From the NCBI GenBank assembly GCA_965195285.1, contig CBDAFS010000047.1, positions 1 through 24,135 of the forward strand: DNA of 24,135 nt. The letters run 5' to 3'. Position 1 is the stretch's first letter; each line of letters opens with the position of its first letter. Both the position numbers and the translations under genes were made by a program. The DNA is from an uncultured Aminicenantes bacterium (GTDB lineage: Bacteria; Acidobacteriota; Aminicenantia; UBA2199). Positions 1,821 to 16,985 of this stretch are shown piece after piece. The notes under the pieces are model-generated. The model was not told the origin of the DNA. It did no database searches and was given only the letters and a program-made list of their open reading frames with translations.

Positions 1821-2743
1821 TTCACTTTTCCTCTATCCAGGGTTTTTATTTCCGGTCTTTCCCGATTACAGAAGCCGAGCCGTTGGGGGCAACGGGGGTG
1901 AAATCGGCAACCGCCGGGCAATTGATCCAGGCTGGGGCTTTTGCCGGGTATGGGATGAAATCCCTTTTCAGGGCTTGAATCCAGCAGTGCCCGAGAATAG
2001 GGGTGCCGGGGATTACCAAAAAAAGAGTCATTCGGAGAAGTCTCGATGATCTCGCCGGCGTACATAACGGCCATTTGATCGGCAAGTCTCCGGGCCAGGT
2101 TGAGGTCATGGGTGATCAGGATTAAGGTAACCTGCTCAATCTGCTTGGCTTTTATCAATTCATTGATAATGATTTCCCGGGTAGAACGGTCCAGTCCCTT
2201 GGTGGGTTCGTCGGCGATAATGACCTCCGGTTTGGTCAGCAGGGCAGCCGCAATCAACAGCCTCTGCTTCATTCCTCCCGACAGCTGGTGGGGATACAGT
2301 TTTAAAATGGATTTCCCATTATCAAATCCCAATTTTTCAAGTATTTGCAGGATCTGATTCCGGGCCCGGTTTCGATTGGTCAGATGATGAATGATTAAAG
2401 GTTCGACCAGTTGGTTTTGGATGTTAATGACCGGATTTAAGGAAAGATCCGGATTTTGAGGGATAATGCAGATCCGGGTTCCCCGGATTTTTTCCATTTG
2501 AATTTCCTTCAGTTTCAGGAGATTGAGGCCATTTAGCTTGATTTTTCCGGAAACCCTGGCCTGCGGGTCCAAAATTCGGATAATGGACTTGGCAATGATA
2601 GATTTTCCGCAGCCGCTTTCTCCAAGAATAACCAGGGTTTGGTTTCCGGGACATTCGAGTGAGATATGGTCAACCACCCTGAGCAGGCCCTTGATGGTGG
2701 GGAAACTCACCTGCAGGTTTTTTATGAATAATCCTGATTTCAT
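1805..2743 (-). CDS. Peptide/nickel ABC transporter ATP-binding subunit (DppD/OppD-like)
   Basis: GESGCGKS, LSGGMKQR, IIADEPT, ITHD, and a C-terminal HPY motif plus CRFHPRC..C..C. Start placed at ATG 2743 (MKSGLF), which overlaps the upstream TGA by 1 nt, rather than at 2860. Confidence 0.93.
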   Translation of the reverse strand: MKSGLFIKNLQVSFPTIKGLLRVVDHISLECPGNQTLVILGESGCGKSIIAKSIIRILDPQARVSGKIKLNGLNLLKLKEIQMEKIRGTRICIIPQNPDLSLNPVINIQNQLVEPLIIHHLTNRNRARNQILQILEKLGFDNGKSILKLYPHQLSGGMKQRLLIAAALLTKPEVIIADEPTKGLDRSTREIIINELIKAKQIEQVTLILITHDLNLARRLADQMAVMYAGEIIETSPNDSFFGNPRHPYSRALLDSSPEKGFHPIPGKSPSLDQLPGGCRFHPRCPQRLGFCNRERPEIKTLDRGKVKCHLY

Positions 2744-3555
2744 CACAATTGATCTGTAGACTGGATGCGATTGTGGTGGGGTTCCAACCGGTATCCCAGC
2801 CACAATACAGTGAATACCACGGCCACAATACACAGTCCCGGCGGCAGGTACCACCACCATAGATTGTTGAAGAAGCCGCCCCTGGCAAAGGCAAAGTGGA
2901 TCATCATTCCCCAGCTCTTGGCAGATGTGTCACCCAACCCCAGAAAAGAAATTGATGCCTCGACAGTCATGGCCGTGGCCAGATTGATTAAAAATTTCGG
3001 AAAGACAACATCCTGCAGGTTGGGAAGGATTTCTGAAAAAATGATGTAACCGTGCTTGAATCCCAGACACTTGGCACTTTCAATGAACCCCGCTTCCCGC
3101 AACTGCTTGGTCTTACTGCGAACCACCAGACAGGTGGATGGCCACCATAGTACTCCCAGGATAATGGCTATCAACCAGTAATCGGGTTTGATAAAAGCGG
3201 CCAGGAGGATGAGCACCGGAATTTTGGGAATAACCAGGAATATATCAGTCAGCATTTGAACCAGACTGAGAATCTTACCCGGGAAATATCCGGACAGCAA
3301 TCCCAGCACCAGTCCGATTGAAGAAGAAACCGCTGCAGCAATCAATCCGACCATCAGTGATATTTTGGTTCCGGCTAACAGCTCCGAAAGAATGTCGTGG
3401 CCCAGGTCATTGGTGCCCAGGTAATGGCCATGGCTTGGCATTTGAAAGGCCTCAAAGCGCTTCCAGGGATCATGGGGGGCCAGCCAGTGGGTGAGCAGGG
3501 AGGTGACTATGAAGATCAGGCCAACCGTAATTCCCCATTTCAGAATCTTGTTCAT
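2743..3555 (-). CDS. Peptide/nickel ABC transporter permease (DppC/OppC-like)
   Basis: HYLGTNDLGHDILS, EAA loop FIESAKCLG, EASISFLGLG and SWG motifs, with several hydrophobic segments. Confidence 0.93.
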   Translation of the reverse strand: MNKILKWGITVGLIFIVTSLLTHWLAPHDPWKRFEAFQMPSHGHYLGTNDLGHDILSELLAGTKISLMVGLIAAAVSSSIGLVLGLLSGYFPGKILSLVQMLTDIFLVIPKIPVLILLAAFIKPDYWLIAIILGVLWWPSTCLVVRSKTKQLREAGFIESAKCLGFKHGYIIFSEILPNLQDVVFPKFLINLATAMTVEASISFLGLGDTSAKSWGMMIHFAFARGGFFNNLWWWYLPPGLCIVAVVFTVLWLGYRLEPHHNRIQSTDQL

Positions 3556-4502
3556 TTTGGTTTTCTGGTTCTGGGATCCAGCATCAGCTGCAGTCCCTCG
3601 GCGATCAGATTGGCCGCAATGACCATAAAGGTAATTGTCAGAAAGATACCCTGGATCAAGGGGTAATCCCGGCTTAGAATGGAATCATAAATCAGGGTTC
3701 CCATGCCATTCAGGGAAAACACGATTTCGATAAACAGGGCTCCGCTGAATAGGAATCCGAAATCGAGGGCAATCAGGGCGATCAGTGGCAATATGGCATT
3801 TTTAAAAACATGTCTGTTCAGTATTTGTCCGGCTGAAAGGCCCTTGGCCCGGGCATAAATGACATAGGGTTGGTCTTTCTCCAGTATTACACTTCCCCGC
3901 ATGATCAGGAAGTTTCGGGACAAAGAGATCAGGCTCAAAACCATAACCGGAAGCAGATAGTGCAGCAAAATGTCTTGGAACGATCCGCTCTGATAAAATC
4001 CCTTCATGGGAAATATATTCAGCTGAATGGAAAAAATATTCAGAACCATCATGGCCAGGAAAAATGCCGGTATGGAATAGAGAAAAATCAACGCATGGGT
4101 AAACAGGCGGTTTAATCGGGTTGGAGAGGTCCAGGCTGATCGGGCACCCAGGAAAATTCCCAGCAGAGCGCCGAAAAAAATCGAGGGCAGGAGCAATCCC
4201 AGGGTCCAGGGAATTCGGTCGATAATAATGGAGATCACTTTTTTTCGAAAATGGTAGGAATAACCGAAATCCATACGCAGCAAATCCCGGCAATAATATA
4301 AAAATTGAGCCGCCACCGGTTTATCCAGGCCCAATTCCCTTTTCAGGTTGTTCAGGGTTTCTTGATCAACCGATGCATCTTTACCCAGCAAATAGATCAT
4401 GGGATCTCCGGGCATGGCCCGGGGAATGACAAAATTCAAGATGATGATCACCAACAAAGTCAGGAAAATTCGGATGGTACGCTGTTTAAAGTTGGGCATC
4501 AT
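3552..4502 (-). CDS. Peptide/nickel ABC transporter permease (DppB/OppB-like)
   Basis: MPGDP, LGLDKP, DFGYS, YVIYARAKGL, IEIVFSLNGMG and RDYPLIQG motifs. ATGA overlap with the next gene. Confidence 0.93.
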   Translation of the reverse strand: MMPNFKQRTIRIFLTLLVIIILNFVIPRAMPGDPMIYLLGKDASVDQETLNNLKRELGLDKPVAAQFLYYCRDLLRMDFGYSYHFRKKVISIIIDRIPWTLGLLLPSIFFGALLGIFLGARSAWTSPTRLNRLFTHALIFLYSIPAFFLAMMVLNIFSIQLNIFPMKGFYQSGSFQDILLHYLLPVMVLSLISLSRNFLIMRGSVILEKDQPYVIYARAKGLSAGQILNRHVFKNAILPLIALIALDFGFLFSGALFIEIVFSLNGMGTLIYDSILSRDYPLIQGIFLTITFMVIAANLIAEGLQLMLDPRTRKPK

Positions 4503-6099
4503 TGAACTGAAGGTTGAGTAAGCTGTTTATGTTATAGATTCCAAAAAGCGGGTCATGATGCCAGCCGGAGAGATGGTGTTTCATGGGGATCACATCGGTT
4601 TTCCAGATCAGGGCAATAGCCGGTAAATGGCAAGCATAGTATTCCTGAATTTTCCGGGCCAGGGATTTGAGTTGAGCGGGAATTTTTGTGGCTAAAATAT
4701 TATCACATAAACCGATAAAATCCGGGTCATCCAGGGTATGCAGAACCCCTTCACCGGAACGGCGGCTGTCAAAGTACCCGGTGGCCCAGCCGGCATGCAT
4801 CATCATTCCCCAGGGAGTGGTCCGGCTGAGAGTCAGATCATATTTGTAGTTGTCTTTCATATTGACCCAGGAGGCCGGATCCAGTATTTGTAGACGGGTA
4901 CGGAGGCCAACCTGTTTCAGGTAATCGATTATCAATTCCCCCAGACGAATATAAATCGAGGTGGCCACCAGGTTGATTTTCAGTTGATTACCACCCGGAT
5001 CCTCTACAAAGCCATCTCCATTGACATCTCTGTAACCCGCATCTTCCAGCAGGGTTTTAGCCAGGCCAATGTTTTTGTGCAGGGATTCGGTGGGGTGATA
5101 GAACCTGAAATGGGACGGGATGAATCCCCTTCGGGGCAGGGCCCCATAATCACGGGCAATCAACCGGATGATCTCCGCATAGTCCAGTGCATACAATACG
5201 GCCAGCCGGAGTGATGAATCGGAAAAGGGAAATTTCTTCAGGTTGAATCCTAAGAAAACGAGGCCGTTCTGTTTGAAGGTCAGTATTTTAAAATGGCCGC
5301 TGGCTTTCAGGGAGTTGATATTTTCATATGGAAACGTATCGGCATATTTGTAATAGGTATCGACATCTCCTCTTTTCAGGGCCAGTGAAAGTACATCAAC
5401 GTTATGGTAGGTATGGATTTCAATTTGATTGATCCGGGGATTTGAACCCTTCCAGTATGGATTCCGGCAGAAGCGGATGATTCCCGAGTTCAGGTCTGCT
5501 TCCCGGATTATATAGGGGCCGCAGCCTGTATAGTACTTCCCGGATTCCCGGTCCCGGGGGTCTTTTATCCCCTGCCAGATATGCCGGGGAAAGATTCTGA
5601 TGGAAGCCAGCTCGATATCGAAGCGGGTATAGGGCTGGTTCAGGGTGCAGGTGACCTGATTCCCGGATATATCGATCTTTCTGATGATTGTACCCAGCCA
5701 TTTACGGAAGGGCAGATGGGTGTTTTTGTAAAGCAGTGTAAATTTGATATCTTCGGGTGAAACCGGATGACCGTCGCTCCAGTAATAATCCTGATTGATT
5801 TGAAAGGTCCAGGTTTTGTAATCAGCCGAATAGTGGTAATTTTTTGCCAATAACCCCATCGGATTTCCATCCAAACCGAGTTTGAGCAGGGGCGGGTGAG
5901 AGATTATGGAAAAAAGTGACAGTGATGGATCAAACAAAAGGTTCTGTGATTTGACCCGGTGGATGGTGCCGATCTTCACAATCCGGGTATTTTTTTCCTT
6001 TGTTTTTTGAGGAAGGCAATCGGACAGGAGCAGGGAAGAGATTATGATGAGCTGGATAAAAAAGGGATACGGCTTCTTGGTAAAAGATATTGGTAACAC
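4486..6099 (-). CDS. ABC transporter substrate-binding protein, family 5 (peptide/nickel), probably a lipoprotein
   Basis: SBP family-5 motifs (WSDGHPVSPEDIKFT, GCGPY, NPYWKG, LRLAVLYALD, LLEDAGY.D.NGDG) and a hydrophobic signal ending LLLSDC. The ORF is open to TTG 6138, but that TTG is part of a -35 box, so GTG 6099 is preferred. Confidence 0.9.
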   Translation of the reverse strand: MLPISFTKKPYPFFIQLIIISSLLLSDCLPQKTKEKNTRIVKIGTIHRVKSQNLLFDPSLSLFSIISHPPLLKLGLDGNPMGLLAKNYHYSADYKTWTFQINQDYYWSDGHPVSPEDIKFTLLYKNTHLPFRKWLGTIIRKIDISGNQVTCTLNQPYTRFDIELASIRIFPRHIWQGIKDPRDRESGKYYTGCGPYIIREADLNSGIIRFCRNPYWKGSNPRINQIEIHTYHNVDVLSLALKRGDVDTYYKYADTFPYENINSLKASGHFKILTFKQNGLVFLGFNLKKFPFSDSSLRLAVLYALDYAEIIRLIARDYGALPRRGFIPSHFRFYHPTESLHKNIGLAKTLLEDAGYRDVNGDGFVEDPGGNQLKINLVATSIYIRLGELIIDYLKQVGLRTRLQILDPASWVNMKDNYKYDLTLSRTTPWGMMMHAGWATGYFDSRRSGEGVLHTLDDPDFIGLCDNILATKIPAQLKSLARKIQEYYACHLPAIALIWKTDVIPMKHHLSGWHHDPLFGIYNINSLLNLQFNDAQL

Positions 6100-6109
6100 G
6101 GTTGGAATA

Positions 6110-6138
6110 ATCGTAGCACAACTGTCTGCCAATATCAA
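6110..6138 (-). promoter_or_regulatory. Sigma70-type promoter of the ABC operon
   Basis: On the minus strand: TTGATA (6138-6133), 17-nt spacer ending in TGn, then TACGAT (6115-6110), 10 nt before GTG 6099. Confidence 0.55.
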
Positions 6139-6180
6139 CCTGCGGGTTCGGCTTTTCTGTATACTATTTGAAATTCACGT

Positions 6181-6209
6181 TTGACATCTTGAAGAAAAAT
6201 AAATAGGAT
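6181..6209 (+). promoter_or_regulatory. Sigma70-type promoter of the metallophosphoesterase
   Basis: TTGACA (6181-6186), 17 nt, TAGGAT (6204-6209); ATG at 6216. Confidence 0.65.
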
Positions 6210-6215
6210 GAATGA

Positions 6216-7076
6216 ATGGAATATTTTTTTGTTAGCGATCTGCATGGAAATATTGAGAAATATGAAAAATTGTTTCATTCAATAGAAAAACAAATACCCG
6301 ATGCGGTTTTTATCGGCGGCGATATCCTGCCTCATTTTTCAGTACCGGCTCAAGGACTGGATTCAGATTCTAATGATTTTATAAATGATTACCTGGTGAA
6401 AAAAATGACAGATCTGAAAAACCGGTTAAATGATTCATACCCTCCTGTTTTTCTTATTCTGGGGAATGATGATGGTCGATTCAGGGAAACTGCTATTCTG
6501 GATGCAGCGGCTAAAGGTCTATGGCATTACTGTCATTCAAGGCGTTTTATTCTGGATAAATATAGAGTTTACGGGTATGCTTATGTTCCTCCGACTCCAT
6601 TTCGTTTAAAAGACTGGGAACGCTATGATGTATCACGGTATACTGATCCCGGTTGTATTCCTATTGAAGAGGGAGTTTTTTCCCACCCGGTTTCGGAGTC
6701 TGAAAAAATGTATACCACTATTAGCGATGATCTGAAAAAGCTTGCGAATGATGATCCCATGGATAATGCCATTTTCCTCTTTCATACACCGCCCTACAAG
6801 ACCAATCTGGATCGGGCGGCACTGGACAACAAAAAAATAGATTATGTTCCCCTGGATGTTCACGTGGGAAGTATTGCGGTTAAACGTTTTATCGAAGAGC
6901 GGCAGCCACTGATTACCTTGCATGGCCATGTCCATGAATCAGCCCGAATCACAGGTTTCTGGAATGATCGGATCGGCCGAACCCATGCATTTTCCGCGGC
7001 CTATGATGGAAAGGAGCTGGCATTGATTCGCTTTAATCCCGAACAACCTGAAAGAGCCAGCCGGCAACTGCGGTGA
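6216..7076 (+). CDS. Calcineurin-like metallophosphoesterase (Icc-related)
   Basis: Five metal-binding motifs: SDLHG, GGD, GNDD, FHTPP, HGHVHE; 286 aa. Confidence 0.9.
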   Translation: MEYFFVSDLHGNIEKYEKLFHSIEKQIPDAVFIGGDILPHFSVPAQGLDSDSNDFINDYLVKKMTDLKNRLNDSYPPVFLILGNDDGRFRETAILDAAAKGLWHYCHSRRFILDKYRVYGYAYVPPTPFRLKDWERYDVSRYTDPGCIPIEEGVFSHPVSESEKMYTTISDDLKKLANDDPMDNAIFLFHTPPYKTNLDRAALDNKKIDYVPLDVHVGSIAVKRFIEERQPLITLHGHVHESARITGFWNDRIGRTHAFSAAYDGKELALIRFNPEQPERASRQLR

Positions 7077-7088
7077 AATAATGGCAGG

Positions 7089-10000
7089 TCAGGTTGTTTG
7101 TTGATCCTTGAGGGGTAAGGGCATTGCCGCATCGGTTACCGCACCAATTTTAGCTGCATAACTGGTCTTATTTTTGATATCTTCATCAGTAACCAAATGG
7201 ACATCCAATAATCCATCGGTTTGGTACCCGGTTTTGAGGTAATTTTGTTCTGCCAGGGTTAAGCTCCAGCCTTCAAGCCAGTGTTGAAGCGCTTCTTTCT
7301 GTTTAGCAGATCCATTAAAATGAATCAGGAGATCAATATCACTGGCCGGTCCTGCTGTGGCATTTTTGGTGCTGCCAAAAACATATAACCCTTTTACCCC
7401 GAATCGTTCGGGATCCAAACCGGATGCGATTTTTTTTACCATGTGTATTCGCCAGAGCCAAAAGTCATTGTCCAGTTTTTTGGCAGGTTCTTTTTCATCC
7501 GAAGAATATATGAGGGTACCGGTTGAAGGTTCTGATAAAAAACCGATGGCTTCTTCGAGATCCGCATTCATTAAAACACGAAGGATCATACCCTCATTGG
7601 TTTTCGGAACATCAATCACGTGAATTACCTTTTCCAGTGAAGAACATTCCGGGAGAATTTGCTTGAGTATGTTTTTCGAAGACAGAAAAAACCTTTCATT
7701 GAATACAACCTTTTCATCATCAGGATATAAAGGTAGATACCGGATGGAAGACTCCACCAGATCCTGGAAGAAATGGGTTCCGAAAGATAGATCGGGGATA
7801 TAGTTGCCCTTCTTTCTGGCGATTTCGATCAACATTGCGGTATTGTTTATGTCGGAATAGGTGACATTTACCCCCAGTTTGATATCACCTCGACTCCCCC
7901 AGCGTCCCGGTCCCATCAGGATAAACTGGCGTTTGGGTAAAACCTTGTTTAATCGTCCAACGGTTCGCCCGATTGATTTTAATTCGGAGAGATCGGGAAT
8001 ATCATTGTAGGTGTCGGGATTCACATAAACAATATGGGTAATATCCGGGACATGGCCATTTGATATAAAACGATTGGCAGAAAAAATAATTTCATTTTCC
8101 GGGATATCCTTGGGAATGGGAGCCGGTGAAATTTCTTTTGAAAAACTTTGGGGTCGACACTGAAGTAAATAAAAATCTGTGCCATCATGAGCAAATTCAA
8201 TATCCACAGGGGTGTTCATTTTTTCCTTTAAAACGGTTAATAATTGTTTCATCCGGATAATGAAGGGGGTCTTATTCAACAGACCTTCAAAGGTAACGAT
8301 CAGATTATTTTGATCAAAATCGATTCCCAGAATAGAAGTGGCGGTGGTAAAAAGATTATCCTGAAGAATGGATACCATATTTTCAATTCCCGGTATATCG
8401 TTTCCGACATTCTTGAGCAATTCTTTGATTTCCACACTTTCGAACCGGTTGCTTTCCAGGTTAATCACATCGAGCATCTTGGGGGAATAATGAGCGGTTT
8501 CATCAGGGGTTAAATTAATCCGATAATCGGGGTTTCCCGGAGAAATCAGAACCGGGTAATCATTGACCACCCGGTCCACTGCCCGGGTTCCCAATCCCGG
8601 CACCAGCCGGACCAGTCCATCTTCCCTTTGAATGCGGGTGGACCATCGGAATTCATTGTTACTGAAGGCCACGCCGGCAAAAGTGGGAAAGAAATATTGC
8701 CCCACCCGTTTTCCCACCACCTCTTGCAGTAAGATGCCCATTTCTTCCTGGAAGTCCAGCAATCCTCTTTCTTTACGGTATTCGATAGGGTCGGGGGCAA
8801 AAATGGATGCATATACCTCGGAGATGGCATCAAACAAGGCATCCAATCGCTGTTGTTTGGTCCCCTGATTGGCTAAGAATAAACTTTTATATTTTCCGGA
8901 AAATGCCGAACCAAGGCGATCCTCTAATAAACTGGAGCTACGGACAATTATGGGTTTATCCCCGAAATCATCCAGTGCCAGAGACAGGCCTTTTACCATT
9001 TCCGGCGGGAAATATGAATTTTTAAAGATCTGAATGATATTCGGGTAATCATAATGAATTTCATCGGTTTCCTTATATTTCTGTTCATAAATATTTTCGA
9101 GATTATTATACCTGAGGAAACTAATGATCCCATCGGTGCTGATATACCAGGTTTTTGGTATTTTAATATTTTCTTTTAGCTCCGGAAATTGGGTTTCCTT
9201 TTCGACAATTTTGGATGCCAGGAATAAGCCCGCGCTTTTTCCTCCCAATTTTCCATTACTATCGGCAGGAGATATGATCCTCTGAACGATATCATGGTAA
9301 TCACGAACTTCAGTATATTTCTTGGTGATGTTTATTAATTCCAGTTGATCAAAGAAAAATCGACGAGTCAATGATACCCGTAGTCCTTTGTCTATGGCTG
9401 GAGATAGTTTTACACCTTCCGAATCGAGATGCTGATAGCGGGAAAGGGCTTCAATAATATCTGATAAAGAAGATCTTGAATCATCGATGGCACGGACCAG
9501 GAAACGCGAACGGTCTTCGGCAATCCATTTTTGAATACTGGACATAATAATATCCTTGTTCAGATGATTGGCTGCGATGTTAAAGATATCATCACTGATT
9601 GTCATAACTTTATCCAGGGCTTCTTTTTTCAGCGGGCGGTTGAGTTCCTCGGAAATATCTTCTCCTTCGAAATTTTGATCAATGGTGATTTTTTCCAGTA
9701 ACTGTTTGGCGCTTTCCACTCCGATCCAGCACAGGTGATAAAGCATTTTTTGGGAAATATTGATATAAAGATTTTTTTCTGATTTTTTAAGGAGTTCTAT
9801 GATGGGTTTCCACTCATTTTTACTGTCCATGCTCTCTTGAAGACCGTTATCCTGTTTCTGGGTAATTTTCTGTTTTAATTCTTTGGACCAGATGAATTGG
9901 GCAATACGGTCCGAAATGGTATTGAGCAGTTTTGTCTCCTCTTTTAAAAAATATACGTCTTTCTTGTTGCCGGGTTCTTGAATATAGGAGACGGTTATTT

Positions 10001-10286
10001 TTCCATATTGAGCTTTGCTGGTTTTGATCTCGGCAGTCTGGTGCCTGTGGTTTTCCAGAAAGCCAGGAGACTGGATGACTTTATCATTCAGAAGGATCCG
10101 GATACGGCATATTTCCGGATATTGCCATCCGGAGGGTATAATTTTTATGATTTTTTCCAGGGTTTTATCCAGATCGGATTCAGTATCTCTCAATTGTTCT
10201 TCAATCTGGTATAAACAATTGAGTTCTTTCACCCGTTCTTTATAGCCTGCTATCAGTTTATTCTGATTTTTTTTTTGCCGGGTCAT
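7089..10286 (-). CDS. Multidomain protein: GAF-like N-terminus + PEP-synthase/PPDK-type ATP-grasp + putative phospho-His domain + C-terminal nucleotidyltransferase
   Basis: ATP-grasp motifs LGGK (aa 347-350), VRSSSLLED, FSGKY, PGLG, DIEFA, LLQCRP (Q709); then GPGRWGS and SFGTHFF (H838); pol-beta-type NTase motif G971-S-x10-D983-I-D985 with a later LLDVHLV; N-terminal ERVKELNCLY...PSGWQYPE segment. Confidence 0.85.
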   Translation of the reverse strand: MTRQKKNQNKLIAGYKERVKELNCLYQIEEQLRDTESDLDKTLEKIIKIIPSGWQYPEICRIRILLNDKVIQSPGFLENHRHQTAEIKTSKAQYGKITVSYIQEPGNKKDVYFLKEETKLLNTISDRIAQFIWSKELKQKITQKQDNGLQESMDSKNEWKPIIELLKKSEKNLYINISQKMLYHLCWIGVESAKQLLEKITIDQNFEGEDISEELNRPLKKEALDKVMTISDDIFNIAANHLNKDIIMSSIQKWIAEDRSRFLVRAIDDSRSSLSDIIEALSRYQHLDSEGVKLSPAIDKGLRVSLTRRFFFDQLELINITKKYTEVRDYHDIVQRIISPADSNGKLGGKSAGLFLASKIVEKETQFPELKENIKIPKTWYISTDGIISFLRYNNLENIYEQKYKETDEIHYDYPNIIQIFKNSYFPPEMVKGLSLALDDFGDKPIIVRSSSLLEDRLGSAFSGKYKSLFLANQGTKQQRLDALFDAISEVYASIFAPDPIEYRKERGLLDFQEEMGILLQEVVGKRVGQYFFPTFAGVAFSNNEFRWSTRIQREDGLVRLVPGLGTRAVDRVVNDYPVLISPGNPDYRINLTPDETAHYSPKMLDVINLESNRFESVEIKELLKNVGNDIPGIENMVSILQDNLFTTATSILGIDFDQNNLIVTFEGLLNKTPFIIRMKQLLTVLKEKMNTPVDIEFAHDGTDFYLLQCRPQSFSKEISPAPIPKDIPENEIIFSANRFISNGHVPDITHIVYVNPDTYNDIPDLSELKSIGRTVGRLNKVLPKRQFILMGPGRWGSRGDIKLGVNVTYSDINNTAMLIEIARKKGNYIPDLSFGTHFFQDLVESSIRYLPLYPDDEKVVFNERFFLSSKNILKQILPECSSLEKVIHVIDVPKTNEGMILRVLMNADLEEAIGFLSEPSTGTLIYSSDEKEPAKKLDNDFWLWRIHMVKKIASGLDPERFGVKGLYVFGSTKNATAGPASDIDLLIHFNGSAKQKEALQHWLEGWSLTLAEQNYLKTGYQTDGLLDVHLVTDEDIKNKTSYAAKIGAVTDAAMPLPLKDQQTT

Positions 10287-12040
10287 GTCAATATCACTCC
10301 TTGTTTTTTCCTTCCATCTACCTTTATGGTAAGTGGCGAGCGCAGATGGATATGCCTTACAAATTCTGTCTCATCGACTGTTTGCTGGATTTTCAGCCAG
10401 TTCCAGTCAAATGTCGATGTTTCCGACTGATTTAAAGAGAAATAGAGAATTTTCAGGTTTGAAATATTGTGGAAAAAATGAGATCCCTGGCTTAAATCCA
10501 CATGGATATTTTCCAATTTTGCCTCAACAATGGCCCGGGCACCGGATACTTGCCCCCACTCAACCGGAATCCCCAACCAGGGATCACTGCTTCCCAATCT
10601 GCCGAAAATCATTAAAAGAAATGGCTGGTTGTTCTTAATTAACGACCGGTTCATCTGTTCCAGTTGTTTGGCAATAGCCCGGGAATATTTGAAATCAAAT
10701 TTGTCCGGTTTCACATAAACAATATCCTGGATACTGCTCTGGATTCCATTTCCCAGAACATTGACGGAGTTCAGAATACAATTTTTCCCGTTTATTTCAT
10801 CAGTATGAATGGAAACCATTTCCAGGGAGATATTGATTGGCCTGATCTGCAATAAACCGAAACCGGATAAATTATGTGATCGGGTGGGGAATGTCATGGC
10901 AAATTCAATTTCCACTTTGGCCTTAAAATAGGTTTCACATAATTGAAGTATGTTTTTAATGACTTGATTCAGAGGAATCTGATCGAGTTCCAGAATAGGA
11001 GCAAAATTAATGATCCGGGGGCCTTTGGAGCTGGTGCCGATATTGATGCGGTCTGAGGCCGGATCATAGGTGGAAGCGATATATTTCAAGGTATTATCAT
11101 ATTCCGCATCTCCCAGATGCAAGAGGGTTAAATATTCAATTTCTTTGATGGGATCGTATGCGGGAAGTTTTCCCATATTAACCGCCCAGAATTCATTCTG
11201 TGTTTGCTTCAACTGATCATTGATGGTATTAAACGGGGGGCTGATGTGTGGGTATTCGGGGGAATATGACCAGGCCATACCGCCATCCACGATGGTTTTA
11301 CCAAGACCCAGTGCCAGGCTGACAATCCCATCCTCTGGTTTTGCTTCTCCGATGGGATAGAAATTATAACTGCGGCCAACTCCCGATAGGTTGGGGTAAA
11401 ATCGATTAGCATGTTTTTGGCCCACTACTTTTTGAATGATGACTGCCATTTTCTCCAATTCTAACCGGTTTCCCGTGGATTTCATATAATTCCTGGCATT
11501 TCTAAAAAAAGTGGACGCATAAATGAATTTGATGGCCTCTGCCAGTTTGCGGAACCGGCTGCTGGTATCGGATTGGTTATTGGGGATCATTTTGGTTTGG
11601 TACACACCGGCAAAAGGTGAATCGAGACTGTCTTCCAGCAAGCTGGATGAGCGGATGGCCAGTGGTGTATTGGTTTTGCTGATCAGTGATCTGAGATCTC
11701 CATTTAGCAGTGGGGGTAATTCGGATTTTTGAAAATGATGGGCTAATTTTTCATCGCTCATTTCGAGGCCAACAATATCGTACAAATGATTCATCTCCAT
11801 AAATTGGTCAAAAAAAGAAGTGGTAATGATTGTCAGGGGAGGAATTCCAATTTCAACTTCATCAACCGGGTGTCCGGAGGTGAAAGATCCAAGATAATTC
11901 TTGATTTTAGCCAGACCATGGGCTTTACCTCCTAACTCTCCATTTCCCATATAACAAAAATGGTTAACGGATTCAGATGCATTTCTTTGGAATGAGGTGA
12001 TACCTGTCTGTTGCGATAAATTCTTTTTTCTTGCCATCAC
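10283..12040 (-). CDS. PEP-synthase/PPDK-type ATP-grasp domain protein without a pyruvate-binding barrel
   Basis: LGGK (aa 36-39), IRSSSLLED, FAGVY, ALGLG, EIEFA, LLQIRP (Q398), then FGRLGS and SQGSHFF (H521). Start GTG 12040 or ATG 12037. ATGA overlap with the 1065-aa gene. Confidence 0.85.
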   Translation of the reverse strand: MMARKKNLSQQTGITSFQRNASESVNHFCYMGNGELGGKAHGLAKIKNYLGSFTSGHPVDEVEIGIPPLTIITTSFFDQFMEMNHLYDIVGLEMSDEKLAHHFQKSELPPLLNGDLRSLISKTNTPLAIRSSSLLEDSLDSPFAGVYQTKMIPNNQSDTSSRFRKLAEAIKFIYASTFFRNARNYMKSTGNRLELEKMAVIIQKVVGQKHANRFYPNLSGVGRSYNFYPIGEAKPEDGIVSLALGLGKTIVDGGMAWSYSPEYPHISPPFNTINDQLKQTQNEFWAVNMGKLPAYDPIKEIEYLTLLHLGDAEYDNTLKYIASTYDPASDRINIGTSSKGPRIINFAPILELDQIPLNQVIKNILQLCETYFKAKVEIEFAMTFPTRSHNLSGFGLLQIRPINISLEMVSIHTDEINGKNCILNSVNVLGNGIQSSIQDIVYVKPDKFDFKYSRAIAKQLEQMNRSLIKNNQPFLLMIFGRLGSSDPWLGIPVEWGQVSGARAIVEAKLENIHVDLSQGSHFFHNISNLKILYFSLNQSETSTFDWNWLKIQQTVDETEFVRHIHLRSPLTIKVDGRKKQGVILT

Positions 12041-12053
12041 GTCTTTTTAGCTT

Positions 12054-12062
12054 ATTTTACCA
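12054..12062 (-). promoter_or_regulatory. Possible extended -10 promoter for the dikinase-like gene pair
   Basis: TGgTAAAAT on the minus strand, 13 nt upstream of GTG 12040. No clear -35 box or SD. Confidence 0.35.
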
Positions 12063-12141
12063 TAAAGTTTAAAAAGATATGGTTCATCACAGGTGAGGGT
12101 GATAAATTCAATAAGAAACAGAGGTTTTATTCAGAATGATA

Positions 12142-13422
12142 TTAGACCCAGCCCCGGCTCTTACAGGCTGAAGCGACCCGGTCAATGGCAATTACGTAGG
12201 CGGCGTCTCGCATGTACAACTTTTTTTTCTCGGCCAGTTCGTGTACGGAAATAAATGCTGCGGTCATTTTGTTATCCAACCTGCCTAAAACATCATCTTT
12301 TTCCCAATAATAATTCATATTGCTCTGAACCTGTTCAAAATAACTGCAGGTAACACCCCCGGCATTGGCTAAAAAATCAGGTATCATAAATATCCCCCGT
12401 TCCTGAATAACCTTATCTGCTTCTATTGTTGTGGGGCCATTGGCTCCTTCTGCAATTATTTTGACTCCGGGTTTCACCTTTTGAATACTCTCCTGATTGA
12501 TTCCGTTCTCCAGTGCTGCCGGGATCAATATATCCACATCCTGTTCAATCCAGGCTTCTCCGGATAGAACCTCATAACCGAGGCTCTGGGCCTTGGATTT
12601 TTCGATACCACCAAAACTGTCTGTAATCGGTTGAAGTTCCTCCAGTCTGACGCCTTCCATTTTTTTGTAAGTATAAGCCTGATTATCCTTTTGGTCCCAG
12701 CAGGAAACCGCAATGACCTTGCCACCGATTTGGGAATATAATTGAATGGCGTACTGGGCCACATTTCCGAATCCCTGAACACTGGCTGTGGTGTCTTCCG
12801 GTCTGATATCCAAATCCTTCAGTGCCTCTCGAATCACAAAGACAACACCATAACCGGTGGCTTCGGTCCTTCCGAGCGAACCGCCCATTCCAATGGGTTT
12901 GCCGGTAATAAAACCGGGATATTTGGCACCGTGAATGGTTTCATATTCATCTAACATCCAGAGCATGTGCTGGGCACTGGTCATGACATCCGGAGCCGGC
13001 ACATCGGAAAACGGACCCACATTCTTGGCCATTTGGCGCACCCACCCGCGGCACAGTCGCTCCTGTTCTCTGGGGGTGAGGTTATGCGGATCACAGATTA
13101 CACCGCCCTTTCCTCCTCCGAGCGGAATATCCACCACCGCACATTTCCAGGTCATCCACATGGCTAAAGCCCGGACCGTATCAATGGTTTCCTGAGGATG
13201 AAAACGAATGCCACCTTTACCGGGTCCCCGGGCATCGTTATGCAAGACCCTGAAACCTCGAAACACATCAACCTCTCCGTTATCCATCGCAACCGGAATA
13301 TTAAAATGAAATTCCCGGGTTGTATTTCTGAGTAATTTCCGGGTGGCGGGTTCCAGGTTTAACATTTCAGCAACTTTGTCAAACTGGGCCTGAGCGGTTT
13401 CAAATGGATTGTATTGCGGCAT
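12142..13422 (-). CDS. gdhA: Glutamate dehydrogenase (Glu/Leu/Phe/Val dehydrogenase family)
   Basis: GPGKGGIRFHP, MTWK, GGGKGG, DVPAPD, GKP..GGS.GR..ATG, Rossmann VQGFGNVA, EGANGP, PD..ANAGGVTCSYFE. SD AGGAGG (13435-13430) is 7 nt upstream of the ATG. Confidence 0.95.
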   Translation of the reverse strand: MPQYNPFETAQAQFDKVAEMLNLEPATRKLLRNTTREFHFNIPVAMDNGEVDVFRGFRVLHNDARGPGKGGIRFHPQETIDTVRALAMWMTWKCAVVDIPLGGGKGGVICDPHNLTPREQERLCRGWVRQMAKNVGPFSDVPAPDVMTSAQHMLWMLDEYETIHGAKYPGFITGKPIGMGGSLGRTEATGYGVVFVIREALKDLDIRPEDTTASVQGFGNVAQYAIQLYSQIGGKVIAVSCWDQKDNQAYTYKKMEGVRLEELQPITDSFGGIEKSKAQSLGYEVLSGEAWIEQDVDILIPAALENGINQESIQKVKPGVKIIAEGANGPTTIEADKVIQERGIFMIPDFLANAGGVTCSYFEQVQSNMNYYWEKDDVLGRLDNKMTAAFISVHELAEKKKLYMRDAAYVIAIDRVASACKSRGWV

Positions 13423-13459
13423 TTTGTTCCCTCCTGTTTGCCTGTTTTTTGTAAGTCAA

Positions 13460-13488
13460 ATTATAACGTAAACCCGGAAGTAAGGCAA
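13460..13488 (-). promoter_or_regulatory. Sigma70-type promoter of gdh
   Basis: TTGCCT (13488-13483), 17 nt, TATAAT (13465-13460). Confidence 0.7.
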
Positions 13489-13510
13489 TACAAAAAGTTT
13501 ATTTTGTGGA

Positions 13511-13834
13511 CTATACCGTGGCTTTGGGAATTTTACGCTTCAGACTGTGAAGCTGTCGCCTGACCCTTTTCAGTTGAACATGATCATGATCCGCCAGTGC
13601 CTGTTCCCGTTTCTTCTTTAGCACCCTGATCTTCTTTTTAATCGAGGGCTTGTCAACACCGGCCACTTCATGATGCTGATGGAGTTCAATATTAAGGGCC
13701 TTGCATAAGGCAGTTAAAAGATGTTCTTTATTCAGCCGGGTGTATCCCTTGACTGCTTCGTGATCGGTCTCCTTGGCAATTCCCCGCAGTTCGGCTACGG
13801 TTTTTTTCTTGAGTTCTTCATAGGTATGGGCCAT
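13511..13834 (-). CDS. Small basic protein with a Rho N-terminal-like helical domain and a coiled-coil tail
   Basis: ELKKKTVAELRGIAK...GYTRLNKEHLL matches the Rho_N pattern; His-rich linker; Lys/Arg-rich C-terminal helices; AAGGAG SD upstream. Confidence 0.7.
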   Translation of the reverse strand: MAHTYEELKKKTVAELRGIAKETDHEAVKGYTRLNKEHLLTALCKALNIELHQHHEVAGVDKPSIKKKIRVLKKKREQALADHDHVQLKRVRRQLHSLKRKIPKATV

Positions 13835-13871
13835 GGTTCATTTCTCCTTTTTTCCAATCAAATAAAATTTA

Positions 13872-13901
13872 ATTCTAATATATTCGGGGGAATATTGTCA
13901 A
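13872..13901 (-). promoter_or_regulatory. Sigma70-type promoter with a palindromic spacer
   Basis: TTGACA (13901-13896), 18 nt, TAGAAT (13877-13872). The spacer contains ATATTC-N4-GAATAT (13880-13895). Confidence 0.55.
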
Positions 13902-13922
13902 CACCGGTGTGAGGTCTGTAAA

Positions 13923-16900
13923 TCAGAGGTTACCGGCTCTTGTCCGGTTGAAGATAAAACCTTGCAGCTTGTAAAACAGGTAGTAGAAAATGGGGAGCAC
14001 GAATAAAATGAAAAAGGCAGAGGTGGTGAGCCCGCCAACCGTACACAATGCCAGTGATGACCAGATATCGGAAGCATCGGCTTTTTTTAAAATAATCAGG
14101 GGAAGCATTCCCAGGACCGTGGTGGCTGAGGTCATGAAAATAGGCCTGATTCTTTCCTTGGCCCCGATGGAGATCGATTCAATGATATTCTTGGTCTCCC
14201 GGAGGTGGCGGTTGATGTTATCGATCAATAGAATGGAATTGTTCACCACAATACCGGCTAGCAGGATACAGCCGATATAGGCAGTGGAATCAAACGAGTA
14301 ATCCATAATGACAAAAGCGTAAAAAACCCCGATGAGGGCCAGGGGAATGGAAATCATAATGAGGATGGGCTGGAAGAAATTTTCATAGAGTATTCCCAGC
14401 AACAGGTATATCAAAACAGCTGATAACAGTATGGCACTCCAGAGCTGACTCACTTCTTCCTCGGTGATTCGAAATTTCCTCTCTTCCAGGCTTTTTTTGA
14501 AGCCTACCGGAACTTTCAGGTTGTTGAAAATGGTTTTGTGATATCGGTCACCGGCCTTTGATGATCCCAGGTAATCCCATCTGAGCATGGAAACATATTC
14601 CTGGTTCTCCCGGGTAATACCTCCTTTTTGAGTGGATAGTTCGATATCCACCAGATCCTTGATTCGAAAGGGAATGCCGGCCTGGGTCTCCAGATTCATG
14701 GTTAGGATATCATCCAGTTCCAGGTCCTCCACATCCATGGATTTTATTTCCAGGGAGAGTTCCTTGTCGTCGAATTTCAGTTTCTGGGTTCCGGAACGTT
14801 CCATGAGTACAGAGGAAATCAGGTAAAAAAGATAGCGGGGAGACATCTGATAGGATCTGAGTTTTTCCCGGTCCAGCTTAAAGGCAAAATACTTCTCCTT
14901 CCCCCCCCACCAGAAATCCATATCGGTTTGGATATCCACATCCTTTATCCGCCTGTGGTGAAGCATACTCCGTTTCACATCATTGGAATAATCCATTAAC
15001 TTTTCGAAATGATATCCCTTTACCTGAATATTGTAGGGGAGGAAAGATCCGGTATCCGGATTGTAATAATAGGGTTCGGGGTCAAAGCCGCCCACATACA
15101 CCCCGATTCCGGCCAGGTTAGTGGCCAGCCCGACCAGCTCCTGTTTGAGTTGAAGGGGAAAAGCGGAAAACTCTATCTCTTCGGGAAAGGTGATGACCAT
15201 ACGAGCACCACGGTAGTAGCCGCTGTATATCTGGGTGGTGATTTCCTTTTCATAGGGTTTGGCAAGGGCCAGGTCCTCGAATTTTTTTATGGCTTTTTTC
15301 ACATCATTGAATTCGGCTCCGGATGGAAACCGCAGGCTGACTTCGATTTTCTCTTTTGAATACCAGGAAAAGAAACGTCCGAACGATACCTCTTTTTTAA
15401 AGACTGAATAGGAAAAAAACATCAGACAGAAAACCGGGATGAGCACCACCAGCGGGTATTTCAGAATAAAAGGGAAAAATTTTCCCCTTCTGAAAAACAA
15501 ATTTTTGGCTTTGACCTTCAGGGTGATTCGGGCCCCCAGCGAGGGGATAAGCAAAAAGGAAACAATGATTGAAGAGATCAGGGAAATGGTAATCACATAG
15601 GCCAGGGGTAGATAGTATAGCTTCAGGCGGCCCTGAAACAGGGCAAAAGAGAAGAAAACAATTATCGTGGTCAGGGTTGATGAGAGAACCGGAAGAATGA
15701 CTGCTTTTGCCCCCTGAATGGCAGATTCCTTCTTGTCCAATCCCTTTTCCCGGTGTCTCAGGATGCTGTCAAATACCACCACGGCATTGTCGACGAAAAG
15801 TCCGAAACCCAGGGCCAGTCCGGACAAGGTTAGCAGATTCAGGGGGATTTTCAGAAGATAAATGACGGTAAAAGTGGTGAATACTGAAAAGAAAACCGAA
15901 GAAAAAATCAGAATGGAGGCTTTTATATCTTTTATGATGATCATTAATATAATAAAAATAATAATTAGAATGAGAAAAGCGATCTTCAGCAGCCGGACCA
16001 GCCTGTCTTTCAGCTCTTTGCTTTCATCGTGCTGGATGATGAATTCGATTTTCCCCCCCAGCTTATTGGTCAGGTATTGAAGCTTTTCCCGGATCTTCTC
16101 GGAAAGTTTCAGTGAACTGTAATTGGGTTCTTTATAGATGATGAATCCGATGACCGGCATTCCCATGAATCTCATCTCATAGCGTAATTCCTCGTAACCC
16201 AGATACACATCGGCGATCTCTTTTAGCCGCATCTGTTTGGCACCGAAATTTTTAACCACAATATTTTGAATATCCTGAATTTTCTGCGGGGATTCTGATA
16301 ATGAAAGGGTGATCTCGGAACCGGTTTTTTTCAAGGTTGCCGATTGAACAGTATAGAAACATTCATTTATTTTTTGCTGGATTTCAAACAGGCTGATTCC
16401 GAATCTTTTGAGTTTGTCCAGGTTGGTTTGAATTTTGATCTGTGGTTCAACTCCTCCCCAGATCATCACCGATTCGATCCCGGATATTGAATTCAGGTAA
16501 GGATAGATTTCCTTGTCGGCAATTCTTCTCAAGGCATAGATAGAATGCTTGCCATAAACACCCACCTTGAAGAAGGGCTCTTTTTTAAATTCCTCGGGGA
16601 TATTCTTTTGAATCTCAGGTTTCTGCACCTGGGAGGGAAGCTCTTTCTGAAGCCGGTTCAATCTTTCCCGCAGAATAACCTCGGCAAAATTCATTTTGGT
16701 TTTCCGGGTAAATTCAACCTTGATGGTTCCCCGGTTCTGGGTGGAACGGCTTTTCAGTTTTTCGACGCCCTTGATCTGCATGATTTCTTCTTCGGCCGGT
16801 ATTAAAATCTTTTTTAAAATATTATCCGGGGATGCGCCCCACCAGTTGTAGATGATTTCCAGGGTGGGGAGGTCCTCTTCCGGGACCAATTCAATGGGGG

Positions 16901-16985
16901 TGTTTTTGAGTGAATACACACCCAGGAGTATGACAATAATGAAAAAAATGACGGCCATTACCGGTCTTTCAATAATTTTTTTCAT
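13923..16985 (-). CDS. RND efflux transporter permease subunit (AcrB/SwrC/MdtC-like)
   Basis: 1020 aa; TM4 GLALGFGLFVDNAVVV, SSTLTT, TM10 GIVVNNSILL, RIRPIFMTSATT, GGLTTS; two large extracytoplasmic loops. Confidence 0.93.
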   Translation of the reverse strand: MKKIIERPVMAVIFFIIVILLGVYSLKNTPIELVPEEDLPTLEIIYNWWGASPDNILKKILIPAEEEIMQIKGVEKLKSRSTQNRGTIKVEFTRKTKMNFAEVILRERLNRLQKELPSQVQKPEIQKNIPEEFKKEPFFKVGVYGKHSIYALRRIADKEIYPYLNSISGIESVMIWGGVEPQIKIQTNLDKLKRFGISLFEIQQKINECFYTVQSATLKKTGSEITLSLSESPQKIQDIQNIVVKNFGAKQMRLKEIADVYLGYEELRYEMRFMGMPVIGFIIYKEPNYSSLKLSEKIREKLQYLTNKLGGKIEFIIQHDESKELKDRLVRLLKIAFLILIIIFIILMIIIKDIKASILIFSSVFFSVFTTFTVIYLLKIPLNLLTLSGLALGFGLFVDNAVVVFDSILRHREKGLDKKESAIQGAKAVILPVLSSTLTTIIVFFSFALFQGRLKLYYLPLAYVITISLISSIIVSFLLIPSLGARITLKVKAKNLFFRRGKFFPFILKYPLVVLIPVFCLMFFSYSVFKKEVSFGRFFSWYSKEKIEVSLRFPSGAEFNDVKKAIKKFEDLALAKPYEKEITTQIYSGYYRGARMVITFPEEIEFSAFPLQLKQELVGLATNLAGIGVYVGGFDPEPYYYNPDTGSFLPYNIQVKGYHFEKLMDYSNDVKRSMLHHRRIKDVDIQTDMDFWWGGKEKYFAFKLDREKLRSYQMSPRYLFYLISSVLMERSGTQKLKFDDKELSLEIKSMDVEDLELDDILTMNLETQAGIPFRIKDLVDIELSTQKGGITRENQEYVSMLRWDYLGSSKAGDRYHKTIFNNLKVPVGFKKSLEERKFRITEEEVSQLWSAILLSAVLIYLLLGILYENFFQPILIMISIPLALIGVFYAFVIMDYSFDSTAYIGCILLAGIVVNNSILLIDNINRHLRETKNIIESISIGAKERIRPIFMTSATTVLGMLPLIILKKADASDIWSSLALCTVGGLTTSAFFILFVLPIFYYLFYKLQGFIFNRTRAGNL

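Follow-up and report, generated by a model that had tools for sequence, protein, structure and literature searches.

Introduction

Glutamate dehydrogenase (GDH) stands at the junction of carbon and nitrogen metabolism, and we know of little post-translational control of this enzyme in bacteria beyond allostery and a few accessory proteins. The GDH of Thermus thermophilus forms a hetero-complex with a regulatory subunit, Bacillus subtilis RocG is a trigger enzyme that controls GltC, and nitrogen assimilation is controlled by the pol-beta nucleotidyltransferases GlnE and GlnD. The described system that most resembles the locus studied here is VadK (Rv1127c) of Mycobacterium tuberculosis, reported to be a truncated pyruvate phosphate dikinase (PPDK) made of an ATP-binding and a His domain, which autophosphorylates on His422 (PMC13400623). 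VadK is also reported to pull down PrpC and PrpD, the methylcitrate synthase and dehydratase encoded in its neighborhood, and its proposed role is to tune flux by contact between proteins (PMC13400623). Dikinase parts can also be made as separate polypeptides, as reported for HpeHI (PMC12167813). Here we analyze a window of 24,135 nucleotides (nt) from an uncultured Aminicenantes bacterium (GenBank assembly GCA_965195285.1, contig CBDAFS010000047.1, positions 1 to 24,135 of the forward strand), in which the gene of a GDH (gdh) is followed by those of two dikinase-like paralogues, which we call S and B, and by a convergent metallophosphoesterase gene. Judging from their neighborhoods across genomes, these four genes are one conserved functional module. 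We propose that S and B are a VadK-like regulatory dikinase pair coupled to GDH at the protein level, a reading to which we give an even chance.

Conserved linkage of gdh, S, B and a phosphoesterase gene

The first gene of the module is gdh (12142-13422, minus strand; 426 amino acids (aa), Pfam ELFV_dehydrog_N and ELFV_dehydrog). S lies about 100 nt further on the same strand (10283-12040, 585 aa, PPDK_N) and starts with GTG at 12040 or ATG at 12037; its stop codon shares an ATGA with the start codon of B (7089-10286, minus strand; 1065 aa, PPDK_N and NTP_transf_2). The phosphoesterase gene (6216-7076, plus strand; 286 aa, PF00149 with 43 bits against a cut-off of 21.5) converges on B, with 12 nt between the two stop codons. 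An earlier note on this DNA had described this layout: the gene order and the overlap were reproduced from the list of open reading frames (ORFs) and by reading the sequence, in which the convergent stop codons are also directly visible.

That note had proposed a survey of linkage to gdh and the phosphoesterase gene, and had named a lack of enrichment next to gdh as grounds for giving up its idea. We surveyed one genome per species, taking the best 80 of at least 592 relatives of S and the best 80 of at least 593 relatives of GDH; the two surveys share 16 contigs and are thus not independent, and together they cover 144 distinct contigs. Linkage was strong throughout. A gdh of the same type (at least 60% identity) lies directly upstream of S on the same strand in 68/80 S-seeded loci, the rest consisting of four loci without room, one with gdh elsewhere in the locus, three with a distant paralogue only and four with none. 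B directly follows S in 73/80 loci, where it is 50-58% identical to B of the window; five loci have no room for it and two have no B. The phosphoesterase gene is present in 44 of the 54 S-seeded loci that could be assessed: among the 73 loci with B, it converges within 300 nt of B in 33 and lies elsewhere in 11, while 10 do not have it and 19 are unassessable. When the search was seeded with GDH, 42 of the 80 loci had GDH, S and B, eight had GDH and S with the contig ending there, and 16 had GDH and B without S; seven loci had too little room and seven had neither S nor B. S and/or B therefore stand beside GDH in 66/73 informative loci.

The linked GDHs are 65-80% identical. The contigs are labelled Ignavibacteriota, Calditrichota, Zixiibacteriota, Krumholzibacteriota, Acidobacteriota, Aminicenantes, Gemmatimonadota, Planctomycetota, Chloroflexota, Bacteroidota, KSB1, Cloacimonadota and others. 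One carrier is in culture, Melioribacter sp. Ez-97 (locus L187). In the whole collection, at least about 590 species genomes have the module. Recurrence of the arrangement on 144 separate contigs of many phyla puts it far beyond chance. The remark in the earlier note on "ppsA"-labelled genes next to gdh in Bacteroides is borne out in part, as Bacteroidota- or Bacteroidales-labelled metagenome-assembled genomes have the cluster (for example L037, L070, L092, L194 and L196).

No fifth gene is conserved to a comparable degree in the 80 S-seeded loci, the largest other neighbor clusters being present in 18/80 and 13/80 of them. Two sampled members of the 18-locus cluster are a histidine kinase and a hybrid kinase, and the 13-locus cluster resembles antisense frames over GDH or S. 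A literature search, with supplementary files outside its reach, returned no description of the gdh-linked cluster.

Dikinase-like core of S and B

S and B are paralogues, as the earlier note had it: they are 29-31% identical over about 510 residues, and their C-terminal domains are homologous (hhalign 99.35%, E 6e-21). Each has an ATP-grasp domain of the PPDK_N family, spanning residues 35-404 of S (10829-11938, minus strand; Pfam E 1.4e-34) and residues 346-730 of B (8097-9251, minus strand; E 2e-56). The ATP-grasp motifs GGK, RSSSxxED and ExEFA...LQxRP are invariant in S and conserved in 54 B sequences. Since both proteins keep these motifs, both look catalytically competent at the level of sequence. 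In the AlphaFold model of S (predicted local distance difference test, pLDDT, 74.5), residues ~5-405 match the folds of rifampin phosphotransferase (RPH; 5hv1, Z 24.1), the ATP-grasp subunit HpeI (9goj, Z 16.7) and PPDK (1vbg, Z 11.9), and a Foldseek search with the model reached E 1e-11.

The remainder of S, residues 413-585 (10286-10804, minus strand), is a putative swivel-type carrier domain recognized by fold matching. Its top-listed match is the phosphoryl carrier domain of PPDK (2fm4; Z 7.3, root-mean-square deviation 3.6, 115 aligned residues), followed by the C-terminal part of Bacillus stearothermophilus pyruvate kinase (2e28, Z 6.8), and we hold this assignment with moderate confidence, short of firm. 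The equivalent domain of B (residues ~731-917; 7536-8096, minus strand) was placed by hhalign to S. S ends at this domain, whereas B runs on into a nucleotidyltransferase. An invariant histidine of S, His521 (codon 10478-10480), lies in the motif SQGSHFFHN, at the N-terminal end of a helix predicted for residues 520-528. In B, His838 (codon 7773-7775) in SFGTHFFQD is conserved in the same 54 sequences, and the carrier histidine is retained in all five lineages that we compared (S, B and the variants B-short, S' and S'' described below). The phosphohistidine signature of the phosphoenolpyruvate (PEP)-utilizing enzymes (PF00391) is GG-x-TSH-A, and the strand-loop-[ST]-His-helix layout of the S and B carriers resembles that of the TSH motif of PPDK. 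PF00391 itself gave no match in S or B at E<=0.01, and searching the C-terminal parts on their own at E<=10 brought up none either. In its fold the domain does resemble the PPDK carrier, and so may function in the same way.

The PEP/pyruvate TIM barrel (PF02896), which the earlier note had reported missing, has no match in either protein at E<=0.01. NCBIfam models of PEP synthase, RPH, PigC and RedH score S and B at 14-50 bits against cut-offs of 598-1700 (about 50 bits against 598-883 for the PEP-synthase models, 14-32 bits against 999 for RPH). S is fully occupied by its ATP-grasp (35-404) and carrier (413-585) domains, with no room for a RIF-type binding domain, and no acceptor domain was recognized in B, whose fold-match lists were filled by its GAF domain. 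The same genome encodes full-length PEP-utilizer proteins of 939 aa and 879 aa elsewhere, as well as a 596-aa protein with the same domain.

S has more than 8000 related clusters and is ~50-56% identical across phyla, and an ESM Atlas search with residues 405-585 returned only unnamed or "putative PEP synthase" fragments. S and B are also found as natural fusions: among the 120 best homologues of B there are 10 with lengths of 1625-1655 aa, and for one of these, P0134, we confirmed that S (residues 2-572, 51% identity) is joined to B (residues 575-1632, 58% identity). Together with the ATGA coupling, these fusions argue on genomic grounds that S and B act together.

Sensor and nucleotidyltransferase domains of B

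B has three parts that S lacks. Its N-terminal domain (residues ~10-146; 9849-10259, minus strand), called sensor-like in the earlier note, adopts a GAF fold in the model (pLDDT 78): all 50 listed matches are GAF-type sensors, with VIA Z from 12.5 to 8.0, among them 3cit (Z 12.5), 4g3k (11.8), the GAF domain of PtsP (3trc, 10.8) and that of NifA (8jrc, 10.5). The best Foldseek match of this domain had E 4.8e-3. The motif ERxKELNCLY, Cys24 and Cys60 are conserved in it. This small N-terminal GAF-type domain is shared by a sensor histidine kinase of 641 aa, also encoded in this genome (G000 contig C9:17531-19456), with the motif L-K-E-R-V-K-E-I-Q-C-L-Y followed by PAS-like and kinase parts; since the same domain serves in both proteins, it is a reusable sensor module. 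An all-helical domain follows in B (residues ~160-335; 9282-9809, minus strand), delimited from the secondary structure of the model.

The C-terminus of B is a minimal nucleotidyltransferase (residues ~945-1065; 7092-7454, minus strand), with matches to PF01909 (residues 960-1022, E 2.6e-8) and PF18765. Its motif fGStKN...SDiD (G-S...D-x-D) is conserved in 54 sequences, which bears out the domain call of the earlier note. The nearest named model is the MntA minimal nucleotidyltransferase (20 bits against a cut-off of 60), and none of the domains of the GlnE or GlnD families (UTase/UR, HD, ACT) is among the Pfam and NCBIfam matches of the module. A contig labelled Gemmatimonadota has, directly after S, a short gene whose only match is to the nucleotidyltransferase of B (residues 940-1061; L084:2418-2783), and then the phosphoesterase gene; this could reflect a split form, or an artefact of the assembly.

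The GDH and the repeated loss of its GGxKGG lysine

By sequence, the GDH of the window is a bona fide hexameric-type enzyme ("A-type"), with the Pyrococcus, Thermococcus and Thermotoga GDHs as its closest solved relatives (E 1e-118) and matches to the Thermus chains 3aoe and 3aog. GG[SAG]K is the active-site signature of ELFV GDHs in PROSITE, and the motif LGGGKGG of the window's GDH agrees with it. We take the lysine of GGxKGG, Lys105 here (codon 13108-13110, minus strand), to be the catalytic one, going by the PROSITE signature and by K125 of the Clostridium symbiosum enzyme.

This lysine is present without exception in the GDH-seeded set of 80 loci, which lies closer to the window, and is kept in 134/145 A-type GDHs examined. 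In 11 of 65 S-linked A-type GDHs, S, N, Y, M or Q stands in its place. Eight such Lys-less GDHs, those in alignment A2, keep Lys69, Lys93, Arg185, the GFG dinucleotide motif and Ser360, and their S partners are among the aligned sequences that show invariant ATP-grasp and carrier motifs. A quick maximum-likelihood tree groups eight of the Lys-less GDHs in one clade (SH-aLRT 100), while the other three sit on long branches of their own; four changes of the lysine are required, of which at least three are forced by well-supported branches. Lys-less lineages often have a second, different GDH cluster next door. Retention of the module after repeated loss of the lysine argues for a non-catalytic, protein-level role of GDH, and against S and B merely processing the GDH product or throttling GDH activity. 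The substitution pattern thus suggests that GDH is a partner of the module beyond mere adjacency.

Two features mark the A-type clade: a histidine right after the active-site motif (His113, codon 13084-13086, minus strand) and a six-residue insertion around Trp242. His113 is invariant in 35/35 and 80/80 A-type GDHs, absent from seven non-linked GDHs, and replaced by Arg in one related genome (G030). We rejected it as a specific acceptor mark since it is also His in the seven loci without S or B nearby, and it is a clade signature; His113 and the Trp242 insertion are, on conservation, candidate contact or acceptor sites. A prediction of the complex of S (residues 12-585) with GDH, run on 35-row alignments and without controls, scored 0.05 and 0.02 against a mark of 0.32, and weighs neither in favor of binding nor against it.

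Some other GDH arrangements are worth recording. In locus L180 (G036:C14:1-18000) the module lies between two A-type copies, in the order gdh, S, B, convergent phosphoesterase, gdh. P0359 (1094 aa, Omnitrophica-labelled), from a single cluster of long proteins, joins a divergent GDH (residues 133-602) to a B-like nucleotidyltransferase (residues 619-756; hmmsearch E 2e-13 to that of B) and ~340 further residues. An apparent 1082-aa fused GDH in genome G006 was discarded as an antisense open frame, its GAF-like match lying on the opposite strand. Fusions of ~1100 aa that join GDH, helix-hairpin-helix and phosphoglycerate kinase (P0270-P0310) are common in Scalindua and Brocadiia, the anammox Planctomycetota; they are another association of GDH with a kinase.

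Variants of the module and paralogous lineages

We compared 41 genomes related to that of the window at the level of the family or class, with a GDH threshold of at least 67% identity. GDHs above this threshold and a B-type gene are co-inherited and adjacent in this set, G030 being the one clear exception. The module itself varies. Some genomes have gdh-S-B-phosphoesterase; others have gdh-B together with a paralogue of S fused to a response-regulator receiver domain (REC), which we call S', and the phosphoesterase; G026 has gdh-B alone and no S in the genome. In six genomes (G004, G010, G011, G012, G015 and G024) gdh is followed by a ~770-aa protein, B-short, which has neither GAF nor nucleotidyltransferase domain, aligns to residues 155-918 of B and retains the helical domain (~160-335). 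Going by these variants, it is the ATP-grasp and carrier core, rather than the nucleotidyltransferase, that accompanies GDH. Because B-short stands beside the same GDH without a nucleotidyltransferase, nucleotidylation cannot be the core chemistry. Of the sensor-writer-eraser module proposed in the earlier note, the linkage, a sensor domain with a GAF fold, the nucleotidyltransferase motif and the lack of a PEP/pyruvate domain are supported. In four loci of B-short genomes (L174, L175, L176 and L178), a ThyX-like 485-aa gene precedes gdh and a convergent class I/II aminotransferase gene follows B-short.

S-like proteins occur with other GDHs too. REC-fused S' adjoins GDHs that are 32-46% identical to that of the window in L077, L061, L126 and L143. 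A third, REC-fused paralogue is present in the genome of the window (982 aa; G000 contig C15:35492-38440, equivalent to L095:7493-10441): a receiver domain and ~300 further residues precede its ATP-grasp and carrier domains, and it is 41% identical to S. Another lineage, S'' (551 aa, hhalign 99.9% to S), has lost the Arg of LQxRP and forms a cluster with a divergent 453-aa GDH and a 479-aa gene, located beside the main cluster in five Aminicenantes-type loci (L025, L026, L057, L063 and L071), often with a NuoF-like Fe-S flavoprotein nearby. The 479-aa gene ("c4") was considered as a relative of S and B and rejected, being unrelated to both and without a Pfam family. By gene neighborhood, paralogous lineages of S are linked independently to other GDH paralogues.

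The phosphoesterase bears the motifs DLHG, GGD, GNDD, H190 and GHVH, and its residues D8, H10, D36, N84, H190, H236 and H238 are invariant in 26 sequences. The Protein Data Bank (PDB) holds no close solved relative, the best profile match being aq_1956 (2yvt, E 0.019). Its gene tracks S: it is present in 26/37 assessable loci with S versus 2/12 without (Fisher p 0.002, uncorrected for relatedness), and it adjoins S' where S' replaces S.

Surroundings of the module in the window

Next to the phosphoesterase gene and divergent from it lies an Opp/Dpp-type peptide ABC transporter (1119-6138, minus strand), with a family-5 binding protein, two permeases and two ATPases. It is not conserved with the module and fits a peptide- and amino-acid-degrading lifestyle. 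Upstream of gdh, a 107-aa ORF with a borderline Rho_N match (13511-13834, minus strand) has no tblastn match across the 80 S-seeded loci. It is followed further upstream by a resistance-nodulation-division (RND) efflux set, also not conserved with the module, of two AcrB-type pumps (1020 and 1080 aa) and an HlyD-type adaptor (13923-21486, minus strand), and by a 320-aa protein with both an IS200-like Y1 transposase domain and a helix-turn-helix of the DnaA C-terminal type (23118-24080, minus strand).

All four genes of the module are touched by short contigs from two metatranscriptome runs of one study (at least 99% alike in run X1), and one RNA-library contig runs from the 107-aa ORF into the start of gdh. 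DNA carry-over is possible in these libraries, their depth cannot rank the genes, and uncovered parts carry no meaning; the contigs establish neither an expression level nor an operon. A promoter and terminator scan of 5900-14000 gave counts inside the range of shuffles. PADLOC assigned no defense system to the module, giving only generic matches at the level of the nucleotidyltransferase and phosphoesterase domains.

Discussion

The reading that we place at even chances, a VadK-like dikinase pair coupled to GDH, would work as follows. S and B would be phosphotransfer enzymes of the PPDK/RPH type, probably joined in a heteromer that uses ATP to autophosphorylate on its carrier histidines (S His521, B His838), by analogy with PPDK, RPH and VadK. 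Autophosphorylation would be gated by a ligand bound to the GAF domain of B and, in the REC-fused paralogue, by a two-component kinase. The phospho-state might then be read out on the GDH hexamer, through phospho-dependent binding or through phosphotransfer, as the VadK example suggests. The C-terminal nucleotidyltransferase of B would be an accessory second transferase, and the phosphoesterase would reset the mark. GDH could serve as a ligand-binding partner as well as an enzyme, because several lineages kept the module after loss of the GGxKGG lysine. We infer the autophosphorylation, the heteromer, the contact with GDH and the direction of control. The GAF fold, the REC-fused paralogue and the nearby kinases place the module, as far as domain content can tell, in a signalling context.

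A bolder and more doubtful version makes this central metabolic enzyme a component of a phosphotransfer machine: the GDH hexamer, repeatedly in the form of a catalytically dead descendant, would supply the ligand-binding part missing from the S-B pair, which seems to have no acceptor domain of its own. We hold this version to be less likely than not. S and B might then transfer a phosphate or a nucleotide to something bound in the active site of GDH. Alternatively, they might use GDH as their sensor of glutamate, 2-oxoglutarate or NAD(P)H and signal amino-acid status by way of a His-swivel relay distinct from two-component systems and from the phosphotransferase system (PTS).

Several observations weigh against a regulatory dikinase pair acting on GDH. 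Among the related genomes there is one clear exception, G030 (91% complete), which has the GDH without any S or B, and 7 of the 73 informative GDH-seeded loci have neither nearby. The 982-aa REC-fused paralogue is not beside a GDH and follows a LexA / Y-family polymerase / DnaE-like cassette; across its family, 12/19 loci have no GDH match and 7/19 have one. The carrier assignment, at Z 7.3, falls in the range that the tool calls a "common arrangement", and hhalign showed no similarity of either C-terminal domain (0.5% for S, 1.6% for B) to a profile built from 26 genuine PEP-utilizers. Of 162 long GDH proteins, the 120 that were listed include no fusion of GDH to an ATP-grasp or swivel domain. 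Lineages with a Lys-less GDH would gain nothing from retaining S, B and the phosphoesterase, were GDH activity the sole regulated output. The phosphoesterase follows S, rather than B or GDH, which complicates a simple writer-eraser scheme.

Other explanations share much of this evidence. GDH, or its dead derivative, could be a trigger-enzyme sensor whose ligand state (glutamate, 2-oxoglutarate or NAD(P)H) switches S-B to phosphorylate or nucleotidylate a third protein, with the phosphoesterase reversing the mark. Such a sensor would fit the repeated loss of the lysine in GDHs that keep the other binding positions checked and stand beside an intact S, B and phosphoesterase; the second GDH cluster often found beside Lys-less lineages agrees with it, and the REC-fused paralogue and nearby histidine kinases supply a signalling context. 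We nevertheless judge it unlikely, as no conserved fifth gene presents itself as the target (18/80 and 13/80 loci at most) and as the lysine is kept in 134/145 A-type GDHs, so that catalysis matters in most lineages. Alternatively, the chemistry could concern small molecules, S-B being a multi-component dikinase or ligase for a metabolite of the GDH reaction or for a ligand held by GDH, with GDH as the acceptor-binding subunit and the phosphoesterase hydrolyzing the product or a side product. The characterized ATP-grasp relatives (RPH, PPDK, PpsA, HpeHI, PigC and RedH) do act on small molecules, two-component dikinases exist, as reported for HpeHI (PMC12167813), the acceptor domain that S and B seem to lack could be supplied by a partner, and a Lys-less GDH that keeps its binding positions would suit a subunit that holds an acceptor. 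Yet none of the known metabolites fits, the added GAF, REC and nucleotidyltransferase domains look regulatory, as do the kinase neighbors, and the linkage is to three GDH subfamilies and not to pathway enzymes, other neighbors not being conserved; this makes the small-molecule reading quite unlikely in our view.

The idea closest to the earlier note is that GlnE/GlnD-like nucleotidylation of GDH by B is decisive, with the phosphoesterase as a de-nucleotidylating phosphodiesterase and the ATP-grasp domains as auxiliaries. The nucleotidyltransferase motif of B is conserved and one natural fusion of GDH to such a domain exists (P0359, hmmsearch E 2e-13). In the phosphoesterase, GNDD, a putative mark of diesterases, replaces GNH[DE], and such faint matches as this protein has are all to diesterases of the YfcE type. 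Against this, B-short stands beside the same GDH without the domain, the pairs of REC-fused S' with GDH and the clusters of S'' with GDH do not have it either, the Pfam scan found no GlnE or GlnD family domain, and the phosphoesterase goes with S and not with the nucleotidyltransferase-bearing B (26/37 versus 2/12 loci); we regard decisive nucleotidylation as very improbable. We consider refuted the idea that S and B are mere pieces of an ordinary PEP synthase or PPDK that stand next to gdh by accident. Some sources do label homologues "pyruvate, water dikinase", but the proteins have no PEP/pyruvate domain and score far under every PEP-synthase cut-off, separate full-length PEP-utilizer proteins (939 aa and 879 aa) are encoded in the genome, and the linkage extends over 144 contigs from many phyla.

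The module is spread over many, mostly uncultured and protein-degrading phyla, and its linkage points to an undescribed control or sensing of a reaction central to nitrogen and amino-acid metabolism. Should S and B prove to be regulatory dikinases of GDH, VadK would be one example of a widespread principle, rather than a peculiarity of mycobacteria, in which truncated dikinases regulate metabolism, and a third type of covalent or phosphotransfer control of nitrogen metabolism would stand beside GlnE/GlnD and the nitrogen PTS. The repeated appearance of Lys-less GDHs inside the module is a natural experiment that suggests a non-catalytic role of GDH. Cultured Melioribacter sp. Ez-97 makes the hypothesis directly testable.

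Comparison with known systems

GDH proteins as regulatory or sensing partners are a point in common with Thermus GDH and RocG, given the Lys-less GDHs of the module; those systems involve no dikinase-like, nucleotidyltransferase or phosphoesterase partners. With GlnE and GlnD, B has in common a pol-beta-type nucleotidyltransferase core in a context of nitrogen metabolism. PtsP (EI-Ntr) has the same order of a GAF sensor followed by His-swivel phosphotransfer as B, and the GAF domains of PtsP and NifA are among the fold matches. However, S and B have no GlnE, GlnD or EI domains, their partner is GDH and not PII, glutamine synthetase or NPr, and their predicted phosphoryl donor is ATP, through the ATP-grasp domain, whereas that of PtsP is PEP.

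PpsA and PPDK have a PPDK_N ATP-grasp domain with the same motifs and a carrier domain in the same position, with the fold match to 2fm4 at this place; S and B differ from them in having neither the TIM barrel nor the PF00391 signature. The best fold matches of the S ATP-grasp domain are RPH and HpeHI, in which a swivel histidine is reported to shuttle the phosphate (PMC4844700; PMC12167813). RPH and HpeH have a large small-molecule-binding domain, for which S has no room.

VadK is the closest parallel: S has the same two-domain layout, no PEP/pyruvate barrel, and a gene beside that of a metabolic enzyme. VadK is reported to descend from PPDK (PMC13400623), whereas the carrier of S and B has no detectable sequence similarity to the PEP-utilizers. 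S and B further differ from VadK in being paired or fused, in adding GAF, helical and nucleotidyltransferase domains and a phosphoesterase, in having GDH as their partner, and in belonging to other phyla.

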